DNA from: Vicinamibacterales bacterium
GTDB lineage: Bacteria; Acidobacteriota; Vicinamibacteria; Vicinamibacterales; UBA8438
Assembly (NCBI GenBank): GCA_965197375.1
Contig: CBDAMZ010000009.1
Span: 137,956 to 201,955, forward strand
Direction of reading: 5' to 3'
DNA length: 64,000 nt
Position numbers and translations under genes: made by a program. How positions within the stretch are numbered: the first letter of the stretch is position 1; the number at the start of each line of letters is the position of its first letter. The notes under the pieces were generated by a model. The model saw only the letters and a program-made list of their open reading frames with translations, made no database searches and was not told the origin of the DNA. Shown here in pieces: positions 40,416-63,935 of this stretch.

Positions 40416-40630
40416 ATGGAACTATGAGTTTCACTTGACACTCGCGCCCGCCTGACCTACCCTTCACTCGCCACAGCAGACTGCGTGCAATCCGACGTCG
40501 GGTTGCCCGCTCAATACAAGACCCTTCCGGGGAACAAGCGGGACTCTGCATACGCATGCGGTTTGTTGTGGCGACTGACCCGGCGACCAATTCAGGTCAC
40601 GGGCAATCCCAGAAGGGGGAAACCGTTGCT

Positions 40631-47581: not shown

Positions 47582-48547
47582 TTATCTGGTCGGCGGCACT
47601 CTTGGAATTGCGAAGAGGGAATTCCTCTGTTCCGCGCGCTTCTCCTCGAAGTAGCGGTCAAACGACCTTACGTCGCTGGTTCTGCCTAGCTCCGCGCCCT
47701 GCTTGATCCAGCGCACCAACATCCGAAACGGGTCGGGCGGTCTGGATCCGCCTGCGTGCGTCGCCGTCTCCGCGGACCACGAGTCCTGCCACGCCTCCGG
47801 GCCGTCCTTGTGCACCGTCACCCCGTAAGTTCCGGCGGCGGACTTGCGCACCTCCTTCCGCTCCCCCTTGGTCACTTGTCCCCACCTTACGGCATGCCCG
47901 TCCAGCGTCACGAGCAGGTTCGGCACCACGCTCGCATCCAGGCCCGCCGAGAGCCCGCTGAACATCCCCACCAGCGTTTCGCGACTCAGCCGCGACTCGC
48001 CCGCCAGCACGAACCCGAATATCTGTGCTCGCTCTTTCTGTTCCGGCCCCTCGTCCAGTCGGACGACCGAGTCGCGGTGCGGAGACAGGTAGTTCCGTTT
48101 CAACGGGATCGGTTCTCCGGTCGTGGGATGCGGCAGCAGGTCAGTCACGTCGTACCGCCGAAGTTCCTTCGCCGACGCGACCTTCCGGAACGCGTCCTCG
48201 AGCGAATCCCCATCCAGCCGACTCTTGATCTCGCCCACGGCGATCACGCCTTCGCACGGGTAGTAGGTCGTTTGCGCCGTGCGATTCACCGAGAACACCG
48301 GGCAGATGTCCCGCTCGTATACAACAACGTCCTGCTGGCGGCTCGTCCCGTCGTAGTTGTCTATGACGAAGCCTTCCCCGACTCCCAGACCCCGTGGCAG
48401 GACCTGCTCCAGTTGGTCCCTAACGGGTTGCTCCGCCGCCGATCCCACGGTCGACGGAGTAGTGCCGGCCTTTGCGTCCTTGAATTCGTCGACGAGCCGC
48501 TCACCGATGCGCCGGATGAATGCGTCCGGATCGAAGGTCCTGCTCAT
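47582..48547 (-). CDS. PD-(D/E)XK nuclease-fold protein (DUF6602-like)
   Basis: 321-aa ORF. SRQQDVVVYERD ... YPCEGVIAVGEIKSRLD gives a D...E-x-K arrangement on predicted strands. The family assignment is from memory of the DUF6602 pattern and is not verified. Confidence 0.55.
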   Translation of the reverse strand: MSRTFDPDAFIRRIGERLVDEFKDAKAGTTPSTVGSAAEQPVRDQLEQVLPRGLGVGEGFVIDNYDGTSRQQDVVVYERDICPVFSVNRTAQTTYYPCEGVIAVGEIKSRLDGDSLEDAFRKVASAKELRRYDVTDLLPHPTTGEPIPLKRNYLSPHRDSVVRLDEGPEQKERAQIFGFVLAGESRLSRETLVGMFSGLSAGLDASVVPNLLVTLDGHAVRWGQVTKGERKEVRKSAAGTYGVTVHKDGPEAWQDSWSAETATHAGGSRPPDPFRMLVRWIKQGAELGRTSDVRSFDRYFEEKRAEQRNSLFAIPRVPPTR

Positions 48548-49315: not shown

Positions 49316-51313
49316 TCAATCAGTGTCTTGTTCCGTTGGGCTATTCTTCTCTCTTGCGACATCAGGAAATGATTTCACAAACGCTGACAGCGCCGCTTCG
49401 GCGCGACCACACGTCTCCCAAAGAGCGGGCTCTACGTGAAGCAGTGCATAGATCTTTCTTTGTAAAGCGATGGCTTCCTCGCAAGTCATGTCTTCAAACG
49501 CCAACTCATTGAGCCAATCGCCGACGGTCTCGCTCCATGCAGCCAAGTCGCTGTTGGCAGCAGCCGCCACCACAGCGACTCGCGCAACGCCTTCAAGTGA
49601 AAGACCACAGTCAGCGCGCCGCCGTGCGACTCGACAAAGGTTCCGTACCTCGTTCGCCAACGCTACGCTCCGGGTGACAGCACTCACCACCGCAAGGCCA
49701 TTCAGCAGCGAGAACAAATCGTCATTGCCACTCACCCTCCGAAGCTGATATCCAACGCGAGATAAGCCCTGGGCTGCCAGTTCTGACAACTGGGGGCTGG
49801 TGCGATATAGCAATGACATGTTGACGAGTTCGCTGAATGACTCCGGAGTCAGTTCCTCAGTTTGAAGACTCACTCTGATGCTAGATTCATACTTGTCCGG
49901 CATTTCGATCACGGCCGCTGAGCCGCCTTCGAGAGGTCCTGGGAGAAAGGCATAGGGAATGATCTTGCGGGATTGAACCGCAGAACCTTCTCCCCAAAGA
50001 AGCGAAGTCAATTCACCCGATCGAACATTCTTTCGATATCGTTCCGCCGCATTCCTAATCCTTCCCAACATCTCTGCCTGGAGCTGCTTCGGCGTCATCC
50101 CGTCTGGGAACCAGCGTGGCTCTTGACGCAAGTCAACCAATGATTGCATGTAATAGTGAGCCCCACCACTCTCAAGTGCCCATTCTGAAAACACCGTTGG
50201 CGCTAGCTCTGCATCAAGTGCCTCGCGCTCAATTAGTGCGGCGTGAGCAATAGACGCCAGCCGTCTCCAAAATGGCGGTCGTTGTCGAGCGATGCTTCGG
50301 CGACTGATCTCACCGTCAACAAGCACCACGAGACCCGACAACAGCTTCAGACGCCCAGCGGGATCTTCCGGATCGTCAGCGCCAATCACCTGGATCATCG
50401 CCGCAAGCCATGGCTCAATCTCAGGAACCGAGTCGAAATGCTGCAGACCACATTCTATTGCCCCGACCTGAGAGATGCGATCGCCATGATTTGCCAACCA
50501 CTCGTAGGTCCGCACCACCTCCTCACGTGGCACCGCCGTCAAATCGATGATTTGCGAGATCATTTGATGAGACGAAAGCACGAATACGGACCGAAGTCCT
50601 TTATAGGACTTCCACTGAACCAGTGTCCGCACGTGAGACGTAAGCACGCCAGAGATAAAGTCGTTCACGTTTGTCTCGGTAGCCGGAATGCCTACCAAGC
50701 GATCGAAATATCGCAGATCGGATGGCACCAAGTCAGCGCCACTGAAATTAGGTGCTCGCAGCCGTTCACGGTTTGCGGCGGTGCAATGCACAGGAGTCAA
50801 ACGGAATTCGTCAAGAACGTCATTAACTTCGTCGTCCTCTAACGGTCTGTCAATCAAGACGTCTCGCCATCTCTTAATGCGTTCGTCGATGATGGCACAG
50901 TCGGCCGTCTGTCTCTCGAACCATTCCATTCGTGTATTGACGTCAGGCGCTAGACACGCACATTCTGGCAACGCCTGCACGACTTTCTCATGGGTAACAG
51001 TGATTCCAGTTCCATTGTCATTGGTTAGGCGCCATACCATACCGTCCATCGACTCAACGTCTACGCTACGAGTCGCGCCAGCAAGTACTTGTCGCGCGGC
51101 TCGGAAGAGTGTTGAGCGAATAAACTCTGCGCCTGTTCGCTTTAGCTGAACTACTGCGTCGCCGCGGAGGGCATAACGGGTGCGAAACTCTTCGTCTCTC
51201 ACTATGGCGGTACGTACGCTTGGCGGAAACAGTCGCAATGCCGCCATAGCCATCTCTGCGCCAGAGGGTGTTTCAGTCGTCATCGCCTGTTCTGTTCTGT
51301 AAACGTGTGACAC
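49316..51313 (-). CDS. large hypothetical protein (665 aa as tracked), partner of the 1546-aa gene
   Basis: Long ORF in an AT-richer segment with ordinary amino-acid composition. No motif recognised and no Walker A. The frame opens (GTG 51313; ATG 51283 or 51253) around the stop of the upstream gene (51273-51275), so the two genes overlap or abut. Confidence 0.6.
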   Translation of the reverse strand: MSHVYRTEQAMTTETPSGAEMAMAALRLFPPSVRTAIVRDEEFRTRYALRGDAVVQLKRTGAEFIRSTLFRAARQVLAGATRSVDVESMDGMVWRLTNDNGTGITVTHEKVVQALPECACLAPDVNTRMEWFERQTADCAIIDERIKRWRDVLIDRPLEDDEVNDVLDEFRLTPVHCTAANRERLRAPNFSGADLVPSDLRYFDRLVGIPATETNVNDFISGVLTSHVRTLVQWKSYKGLRSVFVLSSHQMISQIIDLTAVPREEVVRTYEWLANHGDRISQVGAIECGLQHFDSVPEIEPWLAAMIQVIGADDPEDPAGRLKLLSGLVVLVDGEISRRSIARQRPPFWRRLASIAHAALIEREALDAELAPTVFSEWALESGGAHYYMQSLVDLRQEPRWFPDGMTPKQLQAEMLGRIRNAAERYRKNVRSGELTSLLWGEGSAVQSRKIIPYAFLPGPLEGGSAAVIEMPDKYESSIRVSLQTEELTPESFSELVNMSLLYRTSPQLSELAAQGLSRVGYQLRRVSGNDDLFSLLNGLAVVSAVTRSVALANEVRNLCRVARRRADCGLSLEGVARVAVVAAAANSDLAAWSETVGDWLNELAFEDMTCEEAIALQRKIYALLHVEPALWETCGRAEAALSAFVKSFPDVAREKNSPTEQDTD

Positions 51314-54300
51314 TTCTCATGATTAAATGTGACGCGTCTTGAATTGATGCAGTGAACACATCGCTCTGCGTTTCCCTCACATCCTCCAATAGCGCGTTGT
51401 TCAGCCATTCCCAATATGCGTGTCGACGCTCCGACGCTTCCGATTTGAAGGTCATTAGTGCCACCAGTAGTGCACGAAAGCGCACGTGGCTATCCCCTCG
51501 ATCTGCCTCACCAACGTGTCGATGAGACCAACCACGAATATCTAGCAGCTCCAAGAGCCACGTACTCCGTGCCGCAGCCGTTGTGATGTCGATGTCTTCT
51601 CGCCACTGAGACCTGATTGTGTCAAGCAGTACGTGAAAAAGATTGTCTAACCAGGTGGACTCTACTGCAGGCGTGAGTCCTTTGGACATCCGGCACAGTT
51701 GTAGGTTTTCACGCAACGCTTTCATTTCAGCGCCCTCAGCTAGGGCATCGTCAACGACAGTACTTCGCGACAACAACACGGTGAGCTCGTCAAAGTCAAC
51801 TGGCACAAACGCAAGAGCTGCAGAGCGCATGCGCGAAAGATAGTCCGTGCGTTGCTCTTCTTCTAACTGCAATGCAGATAGCAGATCATATGTAGTCCAC
51901 AGAGGCGTCCGTGCACCACCGTTTTGTGAGATGTCTGAGTGCTGATTGAAATAGCGATCGTCAATAACAGCGACGTCGGCACAATTTGCGATTCGTATGA
52001 TGTCGATGGCTGGATGATCAAGAGCAGCATCTGTTGGACCCTCGTTCTGCACTCTCTGAGCCAGGCGCACCTTCCCGTTCATGATCCCGTTTCTGAGCAC
52101 CTCCCTGATGTGGTCGATAACCGCGTTCGCGCGCTCGGCTAGAGCCTCGTACTTAATGAGGCGATCGCCTTCGGCAATATGATTCGCTGAAATCATCAAA
52201 GAGAAGCCAGATGCCTCGAACTTGGGAAGGAGTCGGAGGTGCTGGAAGTACAAGAGTGATACACTGTCGATATAAAGCACTGAACCCGGCGCGACGGCGG
52301 GGTTCTCCGCCCAGGGGGTCTCGTGCAGGTTCAGAAACGTCCGCGCGCGGCGTTCCTCTGCTCGGGTTAGACGTCCTTGTTGAACTAAAGCGTCAATTAC
52401 GGCGAGACAGCCGCAGACGTACGTTTTGTGAAGACCGATGTCTGCCTCTTCTTCCATCAGAGACGCCACTCGATGGATCGGTGCAGACTTCACGACACGA
52501 CGCGGCCTGCGATCAGAACCCCAATCTGCTTTGGCCTCCGCGAATAAGCACGCAAGCTCTCGGCCAACCTCGCTTGCAAGCGCTTCATCGATGGGTGCCG
52601 TGGGCTCGATGGGCTTTAGTAGGCCAGAATCCACAAGACGTCTGATCTCACGCGCACTGGCTACCCTGCTTGGTTGATGAAAACGAATACGCTGCTTTTC
52701 TTCGAACAGCCATCCCAGCGTCGAGTGAGGAACTACAACCCTGCTCACCGCGCGCATTATCCGCTCAAGTAGGCCACACGTCCCTGCGATGAGAAGGGCG
52801 GTTGGGTCTATTGCAATCGAGTGAGGCATGCGCGATGACACACCTCGTCGAGCACCACTGTAGCTATACAGCAACACTCGCCGACGCGGATCAATGGTTT
52901 CCACATTGGCAAGGACGGGCAACATTAAGAACTCCGCCAGAGACCGGCTCAGCAGTCGTGCGCAAGTGAACATTGGAACGAGGCCAGCATTAAACTGATC
53001 CCAAGCTTCCGCCTCTCGTTGTTGCCAGTCTGGGTGTCGATCGATTAAGTCCCGGAGCGATACCCGTTCAACCGGGCCGCCTGAGTCAGATAGCGTCGCG
53101 GCTCGTTCGATCCATTGGACAGTAGTCTCGTCTTCCCATCCGGCCGCCACCGCACTGGAGTAGCATCCGAGTAGCACGTGCGGATCATCCGTCGCCTTGG
53201 CGGCGGCCTCTACAATGAGTGCTTGCGCTCGGGCCGATGTCAATTCTTGCGCTATTTGGCCAGCACGCAACAGTTCTTCGGCACTTCGGTCTGCTCGTCG
53301 CTCCCACTCGCGTTCCACAAAAGTCGCAAGAGAATGCCAGTCACCTGACGCAATCGCTAGATTTACAGCGAGAATCCGATCCTCCGGACAGTCGCGATGT
53401 TCCTGCAGCCGCGTCAGGGCATCGAGACACTTAGCTAACTCGCCAAGATTGTAAAGCGACCAAGCAAGCGATGACTGAAGGTGCTCGGATCTCGACAGCA
53501 GATCCTCGTGCACGCGCAGCAACTCGACGACCTCCTGAAACTTAGCAGTTTCAAATAAGGTCCTAGTGTAAAGCTGGCAGCTTGGTAGGTCGTTGGTCCG
53601 CTCAAAAAGAATCGCCGCGTACGTGGTTAGTCGAGCCCAATCTCTCTCACTTTCTAATGCCTCTACGAGAAGTATCAGGTCTGTCAGTTTATTTGTGGAA
53701 GCGAACTGCCTTTCGCGGACCACCGTTCGATTGGATTCTGCCTCGGCAATAAGCTGTGATAGTCGCGCGCGCTGCTCACTGGGCACATCATGGTTCAAGA
53801 GTTCTTCCAGGCGTTCTTTCGCCAAGGGAAGCTGGCCCGAAGCGACCAGTGACTCGACCTCAATGCTATTAAGGAAAAATATATTCAAGTGTTTCGCCAG
53901 CTCATGTCGATGTTGCCGGATATACGCGGCGCATTCCACGGGTGGCTTCGTCTGAGCGATCGCTAATCGTGCAAGGGCAGCATCTCTTGACCCATTGGCA
54001 GATAGTGATATGTGGCGATCGATCTCCTGCTCCACTGTGTCGAGATCGATCGTCAGGCCGAACTGCAGAGCGATCGGCAATCTCCTGAGGGCGTGCTCAG
54101 GACTTCGCATACTCTGTTCAAGGTCATTGATCGCGATGTGTCGTTCATCGGGATCCCTCAGCCTCAGCAACAGCGCACGGTCGGTCGCGTCGTAACTGCT
54201 CTCTAAGCATTCGAACTCCTGTGCTGCAAGAGCAGATTGCTGATACAAGTGTTGCGCCTTCCGTCGTGTCTCTAGCGAGGCGACGTCATCGGCAAGGGAA

Positions 54301-55913
54301 ATAGGTCCGATTATGAATGGTGGTTGCGATAGAATCACTTTTGCCAATTCACGTGGAACAACGGATGCCAAATGAGCATTCGCAGCGACATACCAGAGCG
54401 CTGGAGTGTGCTCAAAGTCACCGGGCTCAAGGCCGGCACAGCTCGCCAGTGCGTCCTCGAACAGGCTCGCATCCAGCTGCGCTGCGATCACGAAGAACCG
54501 TCCATCAGAATCGAGGTCGGCGAGCGTCAGACCACTCTTGCGTAGCCAAGCCAATGCCTCCTCTTGGTTCTTGTTATTCTTGATTGCGATGAATACTGCG
54601 GCTCGCGCAGTTCGTGACTCAAACTGTGACAGCTTGGCAATCGCACCTTCAAGATCGCCAGCGTAGGACTGCTCAAGGGCCTCAGCAATCGACACTTCCT
54701 CCGTATCTGCGAAACGGCGCGCGGCCCTAACGAGCTCCGGTCCCTCTGTATGACCGGGTTTGCCAAGCAAGAGCCGTGCACACCAAGCCACACCTCGCGC
54801 TTTTGTTATCGCGGGCGCCAATGCAAGATCGCCCGTAGAGAACGCTGTAGCTAGCCGCAAGGCTTGTTCATGAGGCCGTGCGCCGCTAAGGAACCGACTC
54901 TTCCGCAGACGCGTAAGGCGTCTCTCCGCCTCGGTGTTAACCAACTCTCGAGGCATTGCCACCGATAACGGAGAAGCGAACGTACTGGTTGTCAGTGTTG
55001 TCTCGATACGTACATGTGTGACGGGAATGCTTGTCGTACCTGCAGCGGTGTCCTGCAACGTGTCGTGGGTGACCAGCGTTGTGCGAGGACGCAATTGAGA
55101 GGGTGCCTTCAAGAAGTTCTTGATGTGAAGGTACGCCTCGGACTCCCGTGATGCTGGCGAGGCAATTCCAAGATGATCCGCATCAAGCGGAATTGGAGTT
55201 GGGAGCAATCCTGGGTCAGCGCGGTCGGGCGGGACAATATGGAACCCGAGTATGCTCTTAGTCTCGATCAGCGTCTTTATTGCAATGCCATTGTCCGCAG
55301 CGTACCCTCGAAACCATACGTTCAGATCTTGAAGACTCGGATTGTTACGTGCTAGTCCTCTCACGGCTGGCGACGGGCAGATGAGTAAACGCAGTATTCC
55401 GGTCCATGTGGCTAAATCGGCACCGCGATGAGGAGTTCCCAGGAATGCTATGCGACTGACTCGTTGGACAAAATTCGCTGCGTCTGGTTGCCGGGGCGAT
55501 AAATCATGCGCGACGCGCAGAATCTGTTCGAGGATCAGCCCACCGAAACTATGCGCAACGAATGCGATGTCCCCTTCAGCCAACCGCTCGTTCGTCAAGA
55601 GCAACGACAGGATATTGTTGGCTCGGTCGACTCGTGACATGGCGTGACCACGCCACAGAGTAGGCGCCGAATCATGTTCGATGCTCCAGACGCCAAGACG
55701 AGGGATATCATCTGCAAGCCACCGTGGCCACACCTCAGGCTTTCTACCGGAGGACAGCCACGGTTCTTTGTTCGAGAATCGAACCCCGTGAATCAACACA
55801 ACGTGCCTGTCAATAGACGCGAGGCTCGAGAGAGGGACTAGTTTCGACAGGATGAACTCCAAAGGATGTGCGAGATGGCGCCGATCGCAGGCGACGTTGC
55901 GCGATCGTGGCAC
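51273..55913 (-). CDS. giant protein: N-terminal lipase/esterase-like alpha/beta-hydrolase (DUF676/PGAP1/SesB-like) + >1200 aa helical-repeat region
   Basis: 1546-aa ORF. Hydrolase motifs: HVVLIHGVRF, IAFVAHSFGGLILEQI (nucleophile elbow, Ser122 at ~55548-55550), AFLGTPHRGADLA and LDADHLGIAS (Asp/His). The remainder is Leu/Ala/Glu/Arg-rich and TPR/helical-like, with no P-loop. The C-terminal ~500 aa contain several hhhD strands (IAIDPTALL, VLYIDSVSL, VAVIDDRYF) that could be a PIN-like fold (weak). Confidence 0.7.
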   Translation of the reverse strand: MPRSRNVACDRRHLAHPLEFILSKLVPLSSLASIDRHVVLIHGVRFSNKEPWLSSGRKPEVWPRWLADDIPRLGVWSIEHDSAPTLWRGHAMSRVDRANNILSLLLTNERLAEGDIAFVAHSFGGLILEQILRVAHDLSPRQPDAANFVQRVSRIAFLGTPHRGADLATWTGILRLLICPSPAVRGLARNNPSLQDLNVWFRGYAADNGIAIKTLIETKSILGFHIVPPDRADPGLLPTPIPLDADHLGIASPASRESEAYLHIKNFLKAPSQLRPRTTLVTHDTLQDTAAGTTSIPVTHVRIETTLTTSTFASPLSVAMPRELVNTEAERRLTRLRKSRFLSGARPHEQALRLATAFSTGDLALAPAITKARGVAWCARLLLGKPGHTEGPELVRAARRFADTEEVSIAEALEQSYAGDLEGAIAKLSQFESRTARAAVFIAIKNNKNQEEALAWLRKSGLTLADLDSDGRFFVIAAQLDASLFEDALASCAGLEPGDFEHTPALWYVAANAHLASVVPRELAKVILSQPPFIIGPISLADDVASLETRRKAQHLYQQSALAAQEFECLESSYDATDRALLLRLRDPDERHIAINDLEQSMRSPEHALRRLPIALQFGLTIDLDTVEQEIDRHISLSANGSRDAALARLAIAQTKPPVECAAYIRQHRHELAKHLNIFFLNSIEVESLVASGQLPLAKERLEELLNHDVPSEQRARLSQLIAEAESNRTVVRERQFASTNKLTDLILLVEALESERDWARLTTYAAILFERTNDLPSCQLYTRTLFETAKFQEVVELLRVHEDLLSRSEHLQSSLAWSLYNLGELAKCLDALTRLQEHRDCPEDRILAVNLAIASGDWHSLATFVEREWERRADRSAEELLRAGQIAQELTSARAQALIVEAAAKATDDPHVLLGCYSSAVAAGWEDETTVQWIERAATLSDSGGPVERVSLRDLIDRHPDWQQREAEAWDQFNAGLVPMFTCARLLSRSLAEFLMLPVLANVETIDPRRRVLLYSYSGARRGVSSRMPHSIAIDPTALLIAGTCGLLERIMRAVSRVVVPHSTLGWLFEEKQRIRFHQPSRVASAREIRRLVDSGLLKPIEPTAPIDEALASEVGRELACLFAEAKADWGSDRRPRRVVKSAPIHRVASLMEEEADIGLHKTYVCGCLAVIDALVQQGRLTRAEERRARTFLNLHETPWAENPAVAPGSVLYIDSVSLLYFQHLRLLPKFEASGFSLMISANHIAEGDRLIKYEALAERANAVIDHIREVLRNGIMNGKVRLAQRVQNEGPTDAALDHPAIDIIRIANCADVAVIDDRYFNQHSDISQNGGARTPLWTTYDLLSALQLEEEQRTDYLSRMRSAALAFVPVDFDELTVLLSRSTVVDDALAEGAEMKALRENLQLCRMSKGLTPAVESTWLDNLFHVLLDTIRSQWREDIDITTAAARSTWLLELLDIRGWSHRHVGEADRGDSHVRFRALLVALMTFKSEASERRHAYWEWLNNALLEDVRETQSDVFTASIQDASHLIMRSVTRLQNRTGDDD

Positions 55914-56613: not shown

Positions 56614-57249
56614 CTAGCTCGCTTGCGCTTCCGGGAGTATCCCCATACCGGTGCTTCCGTACTTCTCGTACATCGATTCGAACCTGTTACGTAGATCGTC
56701 GTTGCCAACAAGCTCCTCGTGGTACGCTCTCAGTCCACGGACGAACGCCAAATAGACACCCTCGACACTGACGAGGAAATGATCCGGCTTCTCAGGGTTC
56801 TCCAAGATATCGAAGTCCGGTCGCCGATTCACTAGCCAGATCTCCCGCTGCTGGTCATACAACGTGAACGAATGCAGCAACGGATTCCTGAGACCGAGAT
56901 ACAGCACTAGCGCCGAACGGCCAGGATCCTTGGATGTCGGGAACATGTATCGAGCCGCGAAGTTCCTGATTCTGGCACTCACACCGCCCACTTCATCTGA
57001 CCCGGCGTAGAACTTCGCTAGCAAATCTACCCCAGCCATCACAACCATCAGAGTCGCGAACAGCCGGTGCTCCCCGCGCATCGCCTCCTCTACTACTGCA
57101 TCCTCGTGGAGCACCTTCCCGATGAGGCAGTCCTGAGCTTCACGACGAACCAAAAACAGAGAGCTATATGTGCCTGAGCCGTACGTACCTGCTTCAGTGG
57201 GTTGCTCGGGACTCGTGAAAAAGAACGTGATCTTCTCGTCAAGCGTCAT
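56614..57249 (-). CDS. hypothetical protein
   Basis: 211-aa ORF in the AT-richer segment with ordinary composition. No motif recognised. Confidence 0.5.
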   Translation of the reverse strand: MTLDEKITFFFTSPEQPTEAGTYGSGTYSSLFLVRREAQDCLIGKVLHEDAVVEEAMRGEHRLFATLMVVMAGVDLLAKFYAGSDEVGGVSARIRNFAARYMFPTSKDPGRSALVLYLGLRNPLLHSFTLYDQQREIWLVNRRPDFDILENPEKPDHFLVSVEGVYLAFVRGLRAYHEELVGNDDLRNRFESMYEKYGSTGMGILPEAQAS

Positions 57250-57481
57250 GCGCCAATCCTACCTGGCGTGAACGGCCTGTAGACTAGGATTTCCATGTTG
57301 AGGGCGTCGACGCAGAAGCCCGCGTCGAGGGTGTTCGACAGCCGCCAGGCCAGCACATACCGACTCGCCAAGTCCATCTGCCACGCGGAACTGCGTGTTC
57401 GTGCTGTGACGGGAAGCGCTCAGGTGGTCGGTGATGAGTCGCTTGGCCATCGCCGTCACTCAATTGTGGGGCGTCGCTCTA

Positions 57482-57775
57482 CTAGACGGCAGCGGGGCGG
57501 TAACGCTTGACCCTGATATCGCCTTCGCGCATCCGTGCGCGGGCGATATCGTAGGACGCCTGCATCCGCATGAGCGTGTCCATCTTGATGCTGAAGGCCT
57601 TCTCGATGCGCAACGCCATGGTGCCGGACAAGTCGGAACGCCCGTTGAGGAACGTCGACAGTGCAGGACGGGAGACGCCGAGTACGGTCGCAGCGGCGGC
57701 GACGGTCAGGTTGAGCGGTTCGATAACCTCGGTCTTGACGAACTCACCGGGATGTGGGGGGTTCAGCATGCGCAT
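57482..57775 (-). CDS. higA: HigA-type antitoxin (XRE-family HTH)
   Basis: Track ORF 57482..57820. Start placed at M16 (MRMLNPPHPGEFVKTEVIEPLNLTVAAAATVLGVSRPALSTFLNGRSDLSGTMALRIEKAF), the typical HigA/VapI HTH. It lies downstream of the toxin gene, which is the hig gene order. Confidence 0.85.
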   Translation of the reverse strand: MRMLNPPHPGEFVKTEVIEPLNLTVAAAATVLGVSRPALSTFLNGRSDLSGTMALRIEKAFSIKMDTLMRMQASYDIARARMREGDIRVKRYRPAAV

Positions 57776-57788
57776 GGTCGTTCTCCCG

Positions 57789-58073
57789 CTAGTGATAATC
57801 CTCCAGGTCCACGTCAACAATCTCGTCGCCGTCGACCCGGAAGGTGAGCCGCCAGTTGCGCGTGACGTGGAGGCTCCAGGTACCCTTGTGGTCGCCAGTC
57901 AGTTGATGCGCCTTCCAGGTGTGGATCGTGCGTAACTCGTCAGACGTTCCCATATCCTGCAGAAATGCCAACATCCTGCGGAGTTTGTCCACGGCGGCGG
58001 CCGGAACCCCTCTGTGGTCGTCCCTGAGAAACAGACGACGGACACCCCGATGGACGATGTGCCGGATCGTCAC
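57789..58073 (-). CDS. higB: HigB-type toxin (RelE/ParE superfamily, 'plasmid maintenance system killer')
   Basis: 94-aa ORF. MTIRHIVHRGVRRLFLRDDHRGVPAAAVDKLRRMLAFLQDM...HQLTGDHKGTWSLHVTRNWRLTFRVDGDEIVDVDLEDYH matches the HigB/killer-protein pattern (L.G.r.g.wSi.v...wRl.F......v.l.dYH). Confidence 0.85.
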   Translation of the reverse strand: MTIRHIVHRGVRRLFLRDDHRGVPAAAVDKLRRMLAFLQDMGTSDELRTIHTWKAHQLTGDHKGTWSLHVTRNWRLTFRVDGDEIVDVDLEDYH

Positions 58074-58437
58074 TCGTTATGTGTAGCCTAACACATTACA
58101 GTCGGTAACGGTCGAGGACACCGGGGACCCGAGGCCGATCACTTGAGGCCCTCGGTTCGATTGCGATCGGGACGTCACGGAAACGGCAGGTCCTCTGTAC
58201 GAGGAGCGTTGCCACAATGTTGCCAAGACCGGGGTCGACTCGGGGGAACTCCCGGGGACTGGAGGGGACGGCCACACGGCGGGAACGTGATGACCGACAA
58301 AGACTTAGCGCCAGAAGTCCTTTGCCATCATTCACTTAGCAAATCGAGTGGTTCGGGTTCGACTCCCGAGGGCGATTGCGCACGCTCAACCTGCTACCGG
58401 TCCATCAGCACATGCCTAGAACCATTGGGACAGGACA

Positions 58438-59268
58438 CTAGGATTGGAGGCTCGCCCGGATCGTTTCGTAAAGTGTCTTCAGTATAGCCTTGGTCTCCTG
58501 CGCCGCTAGATTTCTCTCGTGGCGCGCCTCCAGCATGCGATAAGCTATTGCCCGTTTGTTCGGAGGGCTGATGCCCTTTGTCTGACACCATTGATCGAGG
58601 GCGATAACGCGACCGGTTCTCGGTATCTCCGCTTCTTTGATTTTGCAGCCATCCCCGTGCGAGCGCCTGAACTCTTCATTGATCGCACAAACATAGCTCC
58701 GCAGTTCCAGAAAGTCCTCAAGTACCGTATCGGACTCGTCAATCTTCGGAAGCGAATGGACTAGTGTGGCCGGTATACCAGCGGCGATGACCTTTTGGTA
58801 CAAAATTCGCCCTGATTTATCGTTGTCCGTTAGGAACACTACTCTTGGCGACTCATTCTTAACTAGCGCCAATTGCTCTTCGGAAGCACTTGATAGCCCT
58901 GGTGCGACCTGAAACCCAAGATGCTCGACCGCGAGTACTTCTTTCAGGAGCGCAGGTAGAAGGATCATGTCTGTGGCACCTTCGGTAAGAACAGCGAATC
59001 GAATCGGAATAAACGCCAATGTGCTGGCTCCCATTCCAAACAGCAATCGGGAGAAGCCAGGATAACCATTACTCCAGAACCAATTGTTTATCTGACTTAA
59101 GTGGTCGGTGGCTTCGACCATTCGAACGCCGAGACCGAGATCTTCAGGGAGGCAACCGAGAGAATGAGTCGTGTACACAACCTTTGCCGCAACGTCCTGG
59201 TGCGCGAGCATCTGCACAAGATCGGCCTGTGCGTCGTAGTGCAGGTGGCGTTCGACTTCATCTATCAA
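58438..59268 (-). CDS. OLD-family nuclease, C-terminal part (Walker B/H-loop of the ABC-type ATPase + Toprim domain)
   Basis: 276-aa ORF starting (TTG) at LIDEVERHLH. Upstream in the same frame is PPIV, giving PPIVLIDEVERHLH (Walker B). VVYTTHS is the H-loop. VLTEGATDMILLPALL (Toprim Glu) and VVFLTDNDKSGR (DxD) follow. Confidence 0.75.
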   Translation of the reverse strand: MIDEVERHLHYDAQADLVQMLAHQDVAAKVVYTTHSLGCLPEDLGLGVRMVEATDHLSQINNWFWSNGYPGFSRLLFGMGASTLAFIPIRFAVLTEGATDMILLPALLKEVLAVEHLGFQVAPGLSSASEEQLALVKNESPRVVFLTDNDKSGRILYQKVIAAGIPATLVHSLPKIDESDTVLEDFLELRSYVCAINEEFRRSHGDGCKIKEAEIPRTGRVIALDQWCQTKGISPPNKRAIAYRMLEARHERNLAAQETKAILKTLYETIRASLQS

Positions 59269-59270
59269 GA

Positions 59271-60389
59271 CTATCGGCGGACCTTAAGATTAGGGTGACT
59301 GGAGAGAAACATAAAGAGTGCTAGGAACTGGCGCAGCCCATCACTCCTCTCAGCGATGCGATCGAACTGACCACCCGGTGATTTAACAAGAATGTGTAGC
59401 ACTCTTCCGTCTAGCCGTAGCCGAACGGTGATTGGTGACTGCGACCAGTTTGTCTTTAGAAGGTCTCTCAGTATTGCATTCGCGCTGTCCAAAAGCGTTT
59501 CAATGTGGCCTTCGTCGTTGATGATGGCGGCGTCGTAGAGTTCCCTGAGCGTTAATCTCGCAGCACCCGAGAGATTCTTCAAAGCGCTCGGAATGGATAG
59601 CGGGTTGTTGGGTCTGAAAAGTTCCTCCAAGTTGTACTCAGACTCAAGTAGGCGATGGTCGTCGCTGAAGAATAGGAACTCCGGCTTCAATGCGAGGAGG
59701 GCCTTCGCCGCAGAATTCGCTGGGTGTGCAAGCAACTCGGACTCGGCTACTTTACGGAAGATGCTCGGGATGGCTTGGAGTTGCTCGGAAGCACCCTCAA
59801 CGATTGGGTCGATTACTTCTGCTTGGCTTTGGAGGATTTGGAGCTTCGCGCTCGAAAGAGTCTGATCCTCGTCCAAAAGCACCTCGCGAACAGCGTCGAA
59901 TTCTACAAACTCCTTCGCGGCCTCATCTTCCGACGACTCTCCAGCCGTGGATTCCGAAATTCTCTCTATTTCAGACCTCGCCGCGTCAAACGCGGAGAGC
60001 GCGCGTCGTCGCGGCTCGAGATCCCTTTCTGGCTCCGGGTTCTGGCGTGTTTCCAGAGGCCCGCCCTGGGCTTTCTTTGACAAAGAAAACCACCTTATCT
60101 CGGAGGCTTCTGGAATGTGGCTGATCACACGGTGGTCATCGTCATCGAGCAAGAAGGTCGCTTCGATGACGTAATCCTCTGGGCTGACAGATTTTCCCCG
60201 TGTCGTTTCCTGCGACGAGCCCGATAGGCGAAACTCGGTCTGGTGATTCAGGTGCTGTAGTGCGTCGAGGATGGAGGTCTTGCCTGACTCGTTCGGGCCG
60301 ACGACCGCCACGACTTTGGTATCAAAGTTGACTTTGGACCGAACAGAAAAGCGTCTAAATCCTTCGATCTCGAACCAAACCAGCTTCAT
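59271..60389 (-). CDS. OLD-family nuclease, N-terminal part (ABC/AAA_15-type ATPase, Walker A to signature motif)
   Basis: 372-aa ORF. MKLVWFEIEGFRRFSVRSKVNFDTKVVAVVGPNESGKTSILDAL carries the Walker A. It ends ...IAERSDGLRQFLALFMFLSSHPNLKVRR*, immediately before the Walker B encoded in another frame. Confidence 0.75.
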   Translation of the reverse strand: MKLVWFEIEGFRRFSVRSKVNFDTKVVAVVGPNESGKTSILDALQHLNHQTEFRLSGSSQETTRGKSVSPEDYVIEATFLLDDDDHRVISHIPEASEIRWFSLSKKAQGGPLETRQNPEPERDLEPRRRALSAFDAARSEIERISESTAGESSEDEAAKEFVEFDAVREVLLDEDQTLSSAKLQILQSQAEVIDPIVEGASEQLQAIPSIFRKVAESELLAHPANSAAKALLALKPEFLFFSDDHRLLESEYNLEELFRPNNPLSIPSALKNLSGAARLTLRELYDAAIINDEGHIETLLDSANAILRDLLKTNWSQSPITVRLRLDGRVLHILVKSPGGQFDRIAERSDGLRQFLALFMFLSSHPNLKVRR

Positions 60390-60699
60390 GTCTCTATCTC
60401 CCGCTCAGCTCCACAGCCGCACCACCTCGACTTTTCGCTTGAAGTGATAGAGCACGCCGACCACCGCGAGCAGCATCAACGATTCCGTGCAGGCAGCGAT
60501 GAAGAAAACGGCGAGTGGATACCCGGCCAAGCCGGAGCTACGCCTTTAGGTTCCGTGTGGCCCTGACGCTCACCCCTTCAGTATCTACCTCTTCACATCG
60601 GGGATCCAGAGGGCGACGCTCCCTGGCCGGTGATTGCTCGGATCTGGAGAGAGGTATCGCCAATCACTTTGACGTCATCTTCGGCCTGAGCCTTGAGCG

Positions 60700-61242
60700 T
60701 CAAACGGTTTCGGCTTGTTCAACCAGCCATTTCCGAATGTGGCCATCGAGTGGTGATAGGAATTCTTCGCCTGTCGACGCGTACACGCCAACACTCAATA
60801 GTCGAAGCTTCAGTGAAAATGGTCCGGCAGCACCGAGCGTTTTGAGCAGCTCGCTCGCGGAGCGCGGAAATGTCTTTGTCAGGAAGAAGAAGAGCGCCTG
60901 ATCGCCGTATTGCAGTTTTGCTGGCACCTTTGTCGAGTACGGGTCGTCGGGCGGAAACACAACGTACGATTGTCTTCGCAATCCTCTTTGCTTCCACATG
61001 ATCCCGGACACGACAACTTCCAGAGACCCGCGGTTTACAACCCGGATCTGGAGGAACTCTGCCCCGTCCCCTAACCGCTGGCCCGTCGGAATCATCCGCA
61101 CTATGGAGCAGGACACTCGAACCCTGTGCCTCGACATTCGGCTCGCCAAATAGAGCGAGACCAAGACCGCACACAGCGTCCCGAGTGCCGAGAACCATGG
61201 TGCGAAGGAGTTTATAAAATCCCAAGTCTCACGATCGGGCAT
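60700..61242 (-). CDS. hypothetical N-terminally membrane-anchored protein
   Basis: 180-aa ORF with a TM segment FAPWFSALGTLCAVLVSLYLA. It lies upstream of and co-directional with the OLD gene. No motif recognised. Confidence 0.5.
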   Translation of the reverse strand: MPDRETWDFINSFAPWFSALGTLCAVLVSLYLASRMSRHRVRVSCSIVRMIPTGQRLGDGAEFLQIRVVNRGSLEVVVSGIMWKQRGLRRQSYVVFPPDDPYSTKVPAKLQYGDQALFFFLTKTFPRSASELLKTLGAAGPFSLKLRLLSVGVYASTGEEFLSPLDGHIRKWLVEQAETV

Positions 61243-61540
61243 CTACTTCAAAGTCCGCTCGATGTGGGGCCGCTTGAACTCCATGCAAGCGCCCGGTGAA
61301 GGCGACGCTCGTGAATTGGCGGCCCTGGTCGGTGTTGAAGATCTCCGGCGGGCAATGGCGGGCCAGCGCGTCGTTGAGGGCGTCGACGCAGAAGCCCGCG
61401 TCGAGGGTGTTCGACAGCCGCCAGGCCAGCACATGCCGGCTCGCCAAGTCCATCTGCCACGCGGAACTGCGTGTTCGTGCTGTGACGGGAAGCGCTCAGG
61501 TGGTCGGTGATGAGTGGCTTGGCCATCGCCGTCACTCAAT
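61229..61540 (-). pseudogene. IS3-family transposase (OrfB/rve integrase core) fragment, frameshifted
   Basis: MDLASRHVLAWRLSNTLDAGFCVDALNDALARHCPPEIFNTDQGRQFTSVAFTGRL matches the IS3 rve core (D...R.vvgw..s......l...AL..A......P.i.HsDqGsQftS..F). A shorter tail of the same fragment opens repeat copy A (57297-57460). Confidence 0.7.
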
Positions 61541-61557
61541 TATGGGGCGTCGCTCTA

Positions 61558-61851
61558 CTAGACGGCAGCGGGGCGGTAACGCTTGACCCTGATGTCGCCT
61601 TCGCGCATCCGGGCGCGGGCGATATCGTAGGATGCCTGCATCCGCATGAGCGTGTCCATCTTGATGCCGAAGGCCTTCTTGATGCGCAACGCCATGGTGC
61701 CGGACAAGTCGGAACGCCCGTTGAGAAACGTTGACAGTGCAGGACGGGAGACGCCGAGCACAATCGCAGCGGCGGCGACGGGCAGGTTGAGCGGCTCGAT
61801 AACCTCGGTCTTGACGAACTCACCAGGATGCGGGGGGTTCAGCATGCGCAT
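61558..61851 (-). CDS. higA: HigA-type antitoxin, second copy
   Basis: Track ORF 61558..61896, start at M16. It differs from copy A at ~4 residues (LNLPVAAAAIVLG, RIKKAFGIKM). Confidence 0.85.
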   Translation of the reverse strand: MRMLNPPHPGEFVKTEVIEPLNLPVAAAAIVLGVSRPALSTFLNGRSDLSGTMALRIKKAFGIKMDTLMRMQASYDIARARMREGDIRVKRYRPAAV

Positions 61852-61864
61852 GGTCGTTCTCCTG

Positions 61865-62149
61865 CTAATGGTAATCCTCCAGATCCACGTCAACAATCTC
61901 GTCGCCGTCGACCCGGAAGGTGAGCCGCCAGTTGCGCGTGACGTGGAGACTCCAGGTACCCTTGCGGTCGCCAGTCAGTTGATGGGCCTTCCAGACGTGG
62001 ATCGTGCGTAACTCGTCAGACGTTCCCATATCCTGCAGAAATGCCAACATCCTGCGGAGTTTGTCCACGGCGGCGGCCGGAACCCCTCTGTGGTCGTCCC
62101 TGAGAAACAGACGACGGACACCCCGATGGACGATGTGCCGGATCGTCAC
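61865..62149 (-). CDS. higB: HigB-type toxin, second copy
   Basis: 94 aa, 2 differences from copy A (TIHVW, GDRKG). Confidence 0.85.
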   Translation of the reverse strand: MTIRHIVHRGVRRLFLRDDHRGVPAAAVDKLRRMLAFLQDMGTSDELRTIHVWKAHQLTGDRKGTWSLHVTRNWRLTFRVDGDEIVDVDLEDYH

Positions 62150-62430
62150 TCGTTATGTGTAGCCTAACACATTACAGTCGGTAACGGTCGAGGACACCGG
62201 GGACCCGAGGCCGATCACGAGAGGCCCTCGGTTCGATTATGATCGGGACGTCAATGAGAAGGCAGGTTCTCCTCGTAGGAAGCGTTGCCACAATGTTGCC
62301 ACGACTGGGGTCGATTCGGGGGGACTCCCGGGGACGGGAGGGCACGACCGAACGGCTGGAACGTGAGGGCCAACAAAGGCTTGTCGCCAGAAGTCCTTTA
62401 CCATCATTCACTTAAAAAATCGCGTGCGTC

Positions 62431-62453
62431 GGGTTCGACTCCCGCCGCTTCCA
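62431..62453 (+). other. tRNA/tmRNA 3'-end-like fragment (T-arm + acceptor 3' strand), putative integrase attachment-site remnant
   Basis: TCGGG-TTCGACT-CCCGC followed by CGCTTCC-A: a GGGTTCGAnTCCC T-stem/loop consensus plus a 7-nt acceptor-like strand and discriminator. No D-arm, anticodon arm or 5' acceptor lies within the preceding ~90 nt, so this is not an intact tRNA. Confidence 0.45.
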
Positions 62454-62788
62454 AGGTCGCGTGCGGCTCAGCGCCGGCCACCGAGCAGGCCCGCACTGCA
62501 GAGGACGTACAGGCACGTCCTGCGCGGCGGTTCGGCTCTCTTGTGCCGCGCTGTCCGCCCGCCACGCGTACGCGTCGCTGGCCGACGCTCGATCGTCGTT
62601 CGGTGACAACGGCAGTCGTGACGATGGTGCCCCGCGGCGCCTGATCAGCGCGTAGTCGTCTCTGCGGTCCACGATCTCACGCCGTCCACAGAGGGTCTTC
62701 AACGCCCTCGGACATCTGATTGCGAACGAGGGGCACGATGAGGGGAAGAGATTACAGCTACAGCTGTAAGATATTGCTATAGAATGAG

Positions 62789-63935
62789 TTACTTCGACTC
62801 TATGGCAGACGCCCAGTCGTTCATCAGCCGCCGCCGACGCTCGAAGAGATCACTGCGCGCGTAGGCCGCCTCGGTGGAGTTCTGTACCGTATGGGCGAGC
62901 GCGGCCTCGACCACCTGCGGGGTGTGCTCGTCCGTTCCGCGGCCCAGTCCCGGAAGCTCGACCGGAACCCATGCGGCACGGCGGCGATGCCGAGTTCCTT
63001 GGTCAATTTCGATAGCGTCATGTTGGAGAGTGGCTTCCCGCGCAGGCTGCGGAACACGAGACCGGTGCCGTCACTGCGTCTCCGTACGTCGTGCAGGATC
63101 GTCAGCGCCCGCCCCGAGAGCGGAACGCGGTGATCCCGCTTCGCCTTCATGCGCGCGGCTGGAATAGTCCAGACGCGCGCGTCCCGGTCCATTGCGTCCC
63201 ACGTCGCCAGGCGTACCTCGCCGGACCGCGCCGCCGTCAGCACCAGGAACTCGAACGCCCGCTTGGTGGGGACCGAGGCCTGGGAGGCTCGCACGGTCGC
63301 GAGGGCGTCCGCCACCGCGCCGTGCGGCAGCGCCCGCATGTGCTGGACGACGGCTTACTGCCGCCGAGGGCGTCGCCCGCAGGGTTGTCCGGCCGGTAAC
63401 CCATGGCGACCGCCCACTTCATCACGGCACCGATCCGCTGGCGCACGCGCCGTGCGGTCTCGGGCTTGTCGTGCCAGATCGGGGTGAGGATGGCCAAGAC
63501 GTCGGCCGTCGACACCTCGGACACAGGCAGCGCCCCGATGCGCGGGAACGCATAGGCGCGCAGACTGCGCGGCCAGTCCCGCGCGTGCTTGGCATTGCGC
63601 CAGCTGGGGCGCTGCTGCGCCAACACCTCGGCGGCGGCCTCCTCGACCGTGGGCACGCCTTGGCCATGGCGCTTCTCGGCCAGCGGGTCTCCGCCCGCCC
63701 GGGCCCGCTGGCGGTTTACGAACGCCGCGTTGCGCGCCTCGGCCAGTGACACCAGCGGGTAGCCGCCGAGTCCGAGCATCCGGGGCCGGCCCCGAATGAC
63801 CAGCCGTTGTACCCACTGGCGCGCCCCGGACGGATCCACGCGCAAGTTCAGTCCGTGGCCGTCGCAATAGAACCCGGGCTCGGCGGTACGCACAAAGGCG
63901 GCGCGGCGCCCGGGGGTGATTGAGGTCGCATCCGC
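62789..63935 (-). pseudogene. int: P4-type tyrosine integrase paralogous to 10560..11771, inactivated by several frameshifts/stop
   Basis: ORF 63237..63893 (FVRTAEPGFYCDGHGLNLRVDPSGARQWVQRLVIRGRPRMLGLGG...) is ~87% identical by eye to the left integrase over ~175 aa. The frame breaks near 63340-63360 (..QTAAAVVQHMRALPH, with an in-frame TAA). ORF 62824..63339 continues (KRAFEFLVLTAARSGEV...HGFRSSFRDWAAERTSTP). A 1-nt loss follows, and the tail QVVEAALAHTVQNSTEAAYARSDLFERRRRLMNDWASAIESK* ends at 62789. No in-frame ATG lies upstream of GTG 63893. Confidence 0.85.

Follow-up and report, generated by a model that had tools for sequence, protein, structure and literature searches.

The window, which is the whole stretch of 64,000 nucleotides of contig CBDAMZ010000009.1 (Vicinamibacterales bacterium, Acidobacteriota) that was analysed, carries near its right end a putative OLD-family nuclease gene enclosed by two 1.07-kb direct repeats. 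Each repeat contains a higBA toxin-antitoxin (TA) module and ends in a 13-nt core, which by sequence comparison derives from the T-stem and T-loop of the transfer-messenger RNA (tmRNA) gene ssrA. The structure of related contigs suggested that integrase-type recombination at this attachment (att) core has probably joined two integrase-less islets in tandem (accretion). Tandem accretion of two related islets at an att site had been proposed in the initial annotation of this DNA. The related contigs supported this interpretation, which was essentially right; the site had to be corrected to a tmRNA-derived one.

Structure of the repeat pair

Repeat search and MAFFT alignment showed that positions 57297-58368 (copy A) and 61373-62444 (copy B) are direct and colinear, with an offset of 4076 nt and zero indels. 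The copies differ by 66 mismatches in 1072 nt (93.8% identity). Identity between the copies is 97.8% in a remnant of an IS3-family insertion sequence (IS; rve domain), 95.2% in the antitoxin gene higA (4 amino acid changes) and 97.2% in the toxin gene higB (2 amino acid changes). The 42 nt upstream of higB are 100% identical, and the longest run identical between the copies, 222 bp, extends from 57921 to 58142. The non-coding segment of 239 nt that leads to the core, called the arm (58116-58354 in copy A), has 83.7% identity, and the terminal 13-nt core is 100% identical.

Both copies terminate in tcGGGTTCGACTCCCg, which is followed by gagggcgattgcg after copy A and by gccgcttccaagg after copy B. 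Over the 100 nt beyond either end of the repeat the identity falls to the random level (28% and 31%). The sequence GGTTCGANTCC has two occurrences in the 64 kb, both at the copy ends, where 0.2 would be expected by chance. The two cores (58355-58367 and 62431-62443) have the same orientation and lie 4076 nt apart, as in a tandem array. The exact alignment bore out what had first been read from the sequence, namely the colinearity of the repeats at the 4076-nt offset, their sharp end with full divergence beyond it, and a near-identical higBA preceded by a more diverged upstream stretch.

Origin of the core and the arm

The T-arm at positions 62430-62444 was matched by the Rfam tmRNA model, over 15 nt only. 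Neither ARAGORN nor Rfam (gathering and E-value modes) found a tRNA or tmRNA gene in the window, and a real tRNA or tmRNA gene at the boundary was ruled out, because the match covers only the 15-nt T-arm. The origin of the core became apparent from related loci, mainly metagenome contigs, which are designated here by L-numbers. The arm and core of L065, L063 and L066 run on into (g/t)(a/g)CGCCTCCACCA, which is a perfect 3′ end of tmRNA. The continuation of the core reads CCCGACGCCTCCACCA in L065 and CCCTGCGCCTCCACCA in L063 and L066; it is near-perfect in L006 and L001, and degenerate (CCCGCCGCTTCCAagg) after copy B of the window. The possibility that the repeat boundary is unrelated to any tRNA or tmRNA sequence is contradicted by these contigs. 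The tmRNA 3′ fragment at 62431-62456, made up of the core and the degenerate acceptor end, marks an island end, in the sense in which such fragments are used by Islander.

Scanning of the JGI metagenomes for the pattern GGGTTCGACTCCCnnCGCCTCCACCA gave at least 124 occurrences, in the 120 stretches listed. Among the matches listed, 81 of the 124 occurrences were at the 3′ end of tmRNA genes predicted by ARAGORN, and the remaining ones were contig-end cuts or island-end fragments. The tmRNA genes bearing GGGTTCGACTCCCnnCGCCTCCACCA start with GGGGGCG, which yields a G3:U70 pair. Since the core matches the 3′ end of real tmRNA genes, we assign it to the T-stem and T-loop of ssrA. The early description of the boundary as T-loop-like was thus correct in that a T-arm stands at the repeat end; its source is a tmRNA and not a tRNA gene. 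Derivation of the acceptor-like flank from a class II tRNA (Ser or Tyr) had been considered, and was dropped because the pattern scan revealed a tmRNA 3′ end with G3:U70.

Some 85 nt from the core, the arm has a run of four 10-bp repeats in tandem. Homologues of the arm extending over ~150 nt and including these repeats adjoin tmRNA 3′ ends in two unrelated soil contigs (L102 and L144; JGI, among the matches listed). The four repeats keep their position in both contigs, and in L144 they show a joint change of GGGGAC to GAGCAC. They are candidate arm-type integrase binding sites. They were not reported by TRF, and were identified by direct reading and alignment. The arms of L102 and L144 were recovered only through the tmRNA-end pattern; scanning the JGI metagenomes and IMG/VR for the core combined with the second arm box returned 0 matches. 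A structured RNA in the arm was also considered and rejected: RNAalifold on six arms gave a positive (unfavourable) covariation term, with pairs mostly invariant or broken. The 15-nt T-arm was the only match to a known RNA model found by Rfam in the arm.

Recurrent junctions at the core

The unit formed by the ~240-nt arm and the core was found on about 25 related metagenome contigs (Vicinamibacterales-like, Acidobacteriota). The locus L011/L068 is the 70.8-kb contig ERZ25072076 ctg237506_6x_l, which contains the window with 99.99% identity. The exact HigB protein is encoded on 15 public contigs and the exact HigA protein on at least 22. In one closed chromosome of 5.69 Mb the module is present twice, 73 kb apart.

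To the left of the core (on the plus strand of the window, which is the tmRNA sense) there is always a member of one arm family: an A-type arm, a B-type arm, an A/B recombinant (L010, L060) or the diverged arm of L006. The L006 arm has the same layout as A and B, and is only distantly alignable with them (mean column identity 75% in the three-way alignment). To the right of the core we found at least seven unrelated flanks (a/c, b, d, e, f, g and h; Table 1), with all switches within ~3 nt of the same position. Comparison of the contigs thus shows an exact, recurrent junction of one arm family with many flanks.

Flank c (L006:5650-5706, L063:6350-6408) contains a complete tmRNA 3′ end and a further ~40 nt in which the direct repeat CCACTGTA occurs twice. 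The extra ~40 nt precede TCCAAGG, the start point of flank a in the window (compared with window 62444-62460), and look like nested att remnants of successive recombination events. In L009, flank d and the core are replaced by an insertion of ~110 nt directly after the OLD stop codon (L009:9722-9850). It is bordered by an 18-nt inverted repeat (ggtattgtcaagttga ... tcaacttgacaatgcc) and looks like a miniature IS-derived element.

Could such junctions arise by homologous or illegitimate recombination only? In that case higBA with its arm would be a dispersed repeat, reshuffled by RecA-mediated exchange, gene conversion and IS-driven deletions, and the T-arm would be an inherited edge of the repeat. 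The module is indeed multi-copy, and mosaics of A and B prove that gene conversion or homologous recombination has occurred: in L002, L006 and L008 an A-like higBA is linked to a B-type arm, in L010 the change from B to A takes place within the arm (table of single-nucleotide polymorphisms), and L060 is also mosaic. Moreover, the left edges of the repeats are ragged (57297, 57311, 57350, 57393), and IS elements cut into many of the flanks. Against this explanation, at least seven unrelated right flanks begin within 3 nt of one position. In L063 the A-type sequence persists through the last diagnostic site, which lies 3 nt ahead of the core, and changes only after that. The divergence of the L006 arm from A and B is too great for homologous exchange, and yet this arm is joined to flank d exactly at the core. 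Finally, at the edge a tmRNA T-arm is continued by acceptor ends of tmRNA, as is characteristic of att sites used by integrases. Homologous recombination alone cannot explain the exact core junctions as they appear in these contigs, above all that of the diverged L006 arm, and we consider an origin by recombination of this kind only to be unlikely.

A further explanation would be that arm and core are the end of some other element, such as a tDNA (tRNA or tmRNA gene)-homing transposon or an IS110-type element, with the T-arm as its target or terminal sequence. IS110-family (DEDD) transposase genes are present in L002/L067, L003 and L069, and no cognate integrase could be assigned to the site. 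We regard this origin as quite improbable. No transposase was consistently linked to the module, the shared block is a symmetric T stem-loop followed by copies of the tmRNA acceptor, as at the att sites of tyrosine integrases, and the recurrent neighbours are tyrosine-integrase genes.

Lineages of the copies and presence or absence of the OLD unit

Copy A is 99.3-99.6% identical to the modules of L012, L061, L063, L064 and L066, and copy B is 99.2-99.4% identical to those of L001, L007 and L009. As the copies are 99.2-99.6% identical to these outside relatives and 93.8% identical to each other, they represent different lineages of one module family that were brought together, and not a local duplication. 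Single-module states exist elsewhere, both A-type (L012, L063) and B-type (L001, L006, L009); in L012 and L061 the A-type islet stands alone, accompanied by an open reading frame (ORF) of 211 codons. A recent segmental duplication of the 1.07-kb piece followed by divergence would account for repeats that are direct, colinear and free of indels. The 6.2% divergence between copies whose outside relatives are so close, and the independent existence of A-type and B-type modules, make it highly improbable. The duplication had been rated the less likely alternative from the outset, and the identity values agreed with this.

Two contigs, L063 and L066, carry the state without the OLD unit. Their module differs from copy A by 7 mismatches and from copy B by 66 over 1057 nt, and it is A-type at all 39 diagnostic positions of the arm, the last of which lies 3 nt before the core. 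After the core follows flank c, which is 89.8% identical to the window flank behind copy B. Relative to L063 and L066 the window has exactly one extra unit of 4076 bp, made up of flank d, the OLD gene, a 180-aa ORF, the rve remnant, higBA, arm B and the core. The same OLD-higBA unit of 4.08 kb, with an intact OLD gene, was found in L006 (window 63084 to 58354, 96.4% identity); there the distal core is preceded by the diverged arm and by a different TA-like gene pair. A comparison of islet states, which had been suggested as a check of the accretion, thus yielded the state without OLD (L063/L066), the A-type islet alone (L012/L061) and the OLD unit in another place (L006).

The other explanation to be considered was an artefact of long-read assembly at low coverage, through a wrong join or the duplication of a contig end. 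The name of the contig suggests a coverage of only ~6x, and there are three frameshifts in the OLD and integrase genes. On the other hand, 66 positions differ between the copies, and two samples have a record of the same contig. L064 independently shows arm A, core and flank d joined; L006 independently shows the whole stretch that begins with flank d, passes through OLD and copy B and ends in flank a/c; and OLD and copy B occur together in L007, L009 and L069. The presence of the same junctions in independent contigs rules out mis-assembly, and we give an artefact hardly any weight.

Model of the joining event

The arrangement would be accounted for by the following scheme. The repeats would be homologous right-end modules (IS3 remnant, higA, higB, ~240-bp att arm and core) of two related islets. 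A tyrosine integrase of the type encoded by tRNA/tmRNA-targeting islands would cross over within the symmetric T stem-loop. By this conservative recombination the 4076-bp unit would have been joined, core to core, onto the end of a resident A-type islet, with the joining integrase acting in trans, and the outcome would be an OLD cassette between direct repeats. Action in trans is what we infer from the islet structures. The layout fits the scheme, in that the arm, the core and the tmRNA 3′ end are followed by an integrase gene directed towards the site. In this position there are three distinct tyrosine-integrase genes or fragments (the window type, L060 and L065), which end ~50-350 nt from the tmRNA-3′-end side of the core and all read towards it.

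The integrase gene next to core B is a pseudogene with two frameshifts, which extends through frames -3, -2 and -1 (tblastn with the intact L001 integrase). Intact homologues with 85-90% amino acid identity were found elsewhere (L190-L193), and their DNA homology to the window is restricted to the ORF. In L191 and L192 the homologue directly follows a truncated virB4/trbE gene, as if the integrase gene moved as a unit, or its element targeted virB4. A possible integrase C-terminal remnant inside flank a was not convincing.

Several observations weigh against the accretion model. There is no integrase gene inside the 4076-bp OLD unit or in the visible part of islet A (ORFs and Pfam). Assignment of a cognate integrase through the intact homologues failed, as their similarity to the window is confined to the ORF and no tDNA lies in their vicinity. 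Moreover, the integrase start is immediately preceded by a 3′ fragment of tRNA-Thr(CGT) that has the orientation of the integrase gene and runs from the anticodon loop to CCA (L011:1160-1225, ~8-73 nt past the right-hand edge of the window). P4-type integrases canonically have their att site at such a position, and therefore the window integrase may not act at the core. The array lies near serS and a tRNA-Ser gene, not at ssrA: tRNA-Ser(TGA) and serS are located ~300 nt beyond the tRNA-Thr fragment. ARAGORN found no tmRNA gene within 6-8 kb of the arm-core modules of L001-L012 and L060-L069. With no tmRNA gene in the window or at the related module loci, the array is not at the canonical target, and an intact regenerated target gene, which Islander expects at the other island end, was not found. 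As flank d is unlike the 3′ end of a tmRNA gene, ssrA could not be restored by the OLD unit, which would have an atypical attP. The junction of arm B, core and flank d, which would represent the circular or attP form of the OLD unit, was not found in the related contigs. The multi-copy, mosaic nature of the module means that some flanks have certainly been rearranged by homologous exchange. The evidence for the joining is comparative throughout. Weighing these points against the recurrent exact junctions, we still find joining at the core by an integrase the likely explanation.

An intact tRNA-Thr(CGT) gene is present in L064 (13409-13484), 6.7 kb from an A-type higBA.

Core-to-core joining explains why the OLD cassette is bracketed by repeats, and it predicts the route by which the cassette may be lost or amplified. 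Deletion or amplification by homologous recombination between the repeats, which the initial annotation had suggested, is plausible in view of the 222-bp identical run; the A/B mosaic haplotypes of other contigs show that exchange between copies happens. As both the adjacent integrase and the OLD gene are frameshifted, the array is probably decaying, and RecA-dependent exchange between the repeats is the likeliest route left for losing or amplifying the cassette.

A bolder possibility, which we regard as rather doubtful, is that arm, core and higBA together act as a portable landing pad, on which a tyrosine integrase acting in trans stacks integrase-less defence cassettes (OLD, PIN-TPR and others) away from ssrA. 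The pad would be a tmRNA T-loop att site equipped with arm-type repeats of its own, kept stable by higBA and borne on islands. If true, this would be an integron-like collection of cassettes on a tDNA-type att site, widespread in soil Acidobacteriota.

Gene content of the islets and their surroundings

The features of the two islets, and the flanks found to the right of the core, are listed in Table 1.

Table 1. Features of the tandem islets in the window and right flanks of the core in the window and related contigs
Feature	Position or contigs	Strand	Basis or remark
211-aa ORF travelling with the A-type module	56614..57249	-	No Pfam/PADLOC match
Repeat copy A, right-end module of islet A (IS3 remnant, higA, higB, arm, core)	57297..58368	.	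Repeat search, MAFFT; 99.3-99.6% to L012, L061, L063, L064, L066
IS3-family (rve) remnant, short version, copy A	57297..57481	-	Colinear with 61373-61557
higA antitoxin, copy A (97-aa version as called in public contigs)	57482..57775	-	PF01381 HTH_3
higB toxin, copy A	57789..58073	-	PF05015 HigB-like_toxin, E=1.8e-12
att arm A, non-coding, between higB promoter region and core	58116..58354	+	Haplotypes A and B, diverged third arm in L006
Four tandem 10-bp repeats (cggggtcgac tcgggggaac tcccggggac tggaggggac), candidate arm-type integrase sites	58230..58269	+	Direct reading
Core A GGGTTCGACTCCC, tmRNA T-stem and T-loop, putative crossover site	58355..58367	+	Comparison with tmRNA genes
Flank d, left end of OLD islet, core A to OLD stop codon; not tmRNA-like	58369..58437	+	Identical flank behind other arm in L006
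OLD-family ATPase/Toprim nuclease gene, frameshifted near 59281	58438..60389	-	Pfam AAA_15, AAA_21, Toprim_2, OLD-like_TOPRIM
180-aa ORF, hydrophobic N-terminus	60700..61242	-	No Pfam/PADLOC match
IS3-family (rve) remnant, longer version (copy B and 124 extra nt)	61229..61557	-	PF00665 rve, profile positions 30-92 of 102
Repeat copy B, right-end module of OLD islet	61373..62444	.	Repeat search, MAFFT; 99.2-99.4% to L001, L007, L009
higA antitoxin, copy B	61558..61851	-	Colinear with copy A; called as 97-aa HTH_3 gene in L001-L010
higB toxin, copy B	61865..62149	-	Exact protein on 15 contigs
att arm B, including four 10-bp repeats at 62306-62345	62192..62430	+	Arm alignments
Core B GGGTTCGACTCCC	62431..62443	+	Rfam tmRNA T-arm match
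Degenerate tmRNA acceptor 3′ end, gCCGCTTCCAagg vs gCCGCCTCCACCA	62444..62456	+	Perfect or near-perfect versions at same position in L063, L065, L066, L006
P4-type tyrosine integrase pseudogene, 3′ end towards core B	62789..63899	-	Pfam Arm-DNA-bind_3, Phage_int_M, Phage_integrase
Flank a	Window copy B, L002-L005, L008, L062, L067		Leads to integrase 3′ end
Flank c	L006, L063, L066		Homologous to flank a after 47-nt offset
Flank h	L065		Leads to 3′ end of another integrase
Flank b	L001		Leads to asparagine-synthase genes
Flank d	Window copy A, L006, 24-nt remnant behind A-type arm in L064		Leads to OLD stop codon
Flank e	L010		Right flank
Flank f	L060		Leads to integrase C-terminal fragment
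Flank g	L061		Right flank

The segment between the repeats had been described as carrying a split OLD gene, a 180-aa ORF and a longer piece of the IS3 fragment, and this was confirmed by Pfam and ORF analysis. The unit from 58368 to 62443 holds only OLD, the 180-aa ORF, the rve remnant and higBA, without recombination or transfer genes. The OLD product has the ATPase domains AAA_15 and AAA_21 in its N-terminal part and matches Toprim_2 and OLD-like_TOPRIM in its C-terminal part; the two Toprim matches are just under the curated Pfam cut-offs (22.0 vs 22.1 bits for Toprim_2, 18.9 vs 23.2 bits for OLD-like_TOPRIM). A single 1-nt deletion in a C run near 59281 splits the gene into two ORFs, as seen by comparison with the intact 650-aa genes of L006 and L009. 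At a coverage of ~6x this deletion may be a sequencing error. PADLOC reported only generic ATPase matches for OLD (AriA, PtuA, GajA; E 1e-20 to 1e-10).

Each islet had been expected to bring its own higBA, and both copies do carry intact higB and higA ORFs, with the gene of the predicted RelE-fold HigB toxin upstream of an HTH_3-type higA, the reversed gene order that characterises HigBA type II TA systems. The "IS3 tail" of the first description is an IS3-family remnant, as stated there, and represents an internal piece of the rve domain, not a tail. The 180-aa ORF adjoins the IS3 remnant in L002, L007-L010, L067 and L069, with or without OLD. The 211-aa ORF adjoins the A-type higBA in L012, L061 and L011, and in L060 there is a 205-aa version. 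A search of the plasmid database gave matches only to the IS3 remnant, with ~78% identity to Bradyrhizobium and Azospirillum plasmids.

Among the 47 GTDB loci with HigB relatives, none has the arm or core upstream. In the closest one, L013 (a Vicinamibacterales metagenome-assembled genome (MAG), Acidobacteriota; 95% amino acid identity), higBA directly follows an integrase gene. Another Acidobacteria MAG has a 3.4-kb islet between a tRNA-Leu(GAG) gene and a direct repeat of the 3′ half of that gene (L036:677-764 and ~4100-4160; L059:~200-275), with a HigB homologue (60% amino acid identity) ~330 nt past the repeat. The location of higBA beside tDNA att sites seems to be a recurring theme in Acidobacteriota.

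In its left 36 kb the window has a chromosomal appearance, with AddAB-like genes and genes for TonB-dependent receptors and TPR proteins. From ~41 kb onwards the window is a mobile and defence region that comprises an IS1595 element, a second tyrosine recombinase, an IS6 remnant and the islet array. A protein of 1546 aa encoded at 51273-55913 (minus strand) has HTH_upstream_double_PIN and PIN-TPR-GreABC domains, and its N-terminal region matches PADLOC DUF626_VIII. The following gene is a 665-aa ORF without family assignment (49316-51313, minus strand). The two genes, which also occur in L011 and L012, probably constitute a defence system of islet A. A DUF6602 protein (47582-48547, minus strand) has a PADLOC match to PD-DExK and NucC-like effectors (E=4e-29), and its gene adjoins a LuxR-type regulator and the second tyrosine recombinase (44231-45229). 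At the left edge of the low-GC mobile region there is a weak Rfam match to sRNA-Xcc1 (40497-40592, plus strand; 31 bits, E=0.055), which is below the gathering score. An AprA-like protein encoded at 7410-9059 on the minus strand (AprA_N, WH_AprA, Methyltransf_36; E=6e-96), located beside a cobalamin-independent methionine-synthase-like gene, is unrelated to the islets.

Comparison with known systems

The case shows the shuffling of small defence and addiction modules in uncultured soil Vicinamibacterales-like Acidobacteriota. A copy of the tmRNA T-loop att site travels with higBA and would serve as an exact joining point for other islets, here one with a putative OLD-family nuclease. The att sequences and arm repeats described above can be tested with the intact integrases of related contigs.

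Among known elements, the P4-type tyrosine-integrase islands target tDNA, as does CP4-57 at the ssrA gene of Escherichia coli. As in islands of the CP4-57 type, the tyrosine integrase of the window has Arm-DNA-bind_3 and Phage_int_M domains, the att core is in the T-stem region, a displaced tmRNA 3′ fragment stands at the island end and a TA module is located near it. Unlike in those islands, the target gene is not regenerated, the integrase gene points towards the core and not away from it, and it is a pseudogene that has the tRNA-Thr fragment at the canonical position. The tyrosine integrases of tRNA/tmRNA-targeting islands use defined sublocations of their targets, of which the two symmetric ones are the anticodon loop and the T-loop, and the island carries a copy of the 3′ part of the target (bioRxiv 10.1101/2020.11.02.365908; Islander, PMC4383910). 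In the Islander collection attP sites in the T-stem form the commonest class, and ssrA is the most enriched target (PMC4383910).

Dehalococcoides has tandem ssrA-specific islands with insertion at the T-loop, whose integrase-less members were proposed to be cis-mobilizable via accretion (McMurdie et al. 2011, PMC3146451). The window resembles these in its head-to-tail islets separated by ssrA 3′ repeats, in the T-loop insertion point, in members without integration genes, and in an integrase on the reverse strand beside the att site (PMC3146451). In Dehalococcoides the recombinase is the serine recombinase DsiB, the islands lie directly downstream of an intact ssrA, and the ssrA 3′ repeat is 20 bp long (PMC3146451). 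By contrast, the neighbours here are tyrosine integrases, there is no ssrA nearby, and only the 13-bp T-arm is shared at the boundary of copy A. The cargo also differs, being defence and TA genes here and dehalogenases in Dehalococcoides.

Cis-mobilizable elements (CIMEs) and their site-specific accretion with integrative and conjugative elements in streptococci have been reviewed (PMC5704250). Like a streptococcal CIME, the OLD unit lies between att-type cores, without integrase or transfer genes, in tandem with a related element. Mobilization in trans, as expected of a CIME, has comparative support in the presence of the same unit behind two different arms (window and L006); in contrast to the streptococcal elements, the host belongs to a different phylum and no conjugative partner was identified. 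The OLD protein itself resembles P2 Old and GajA of the Gabija system in that its intact relatives, each one polypeptide of 650 aa, combine an N-terminal ABC-type ATPase with a predicted Toprim domain at the C-terminus. It differs from Gabija in that there is no adjacent UvrD-like partner (GajB), and a frameshift interrupts the gene in the window.

That islands move through ssrA-type sites, form tandem arrays there and grow by accretion is already established. What is new is an example in an uncultured acidobacterial lineage, in which probable accretion at an ssrA-type att site goes together with an island-end TA module and a defence gene carried as cargo.

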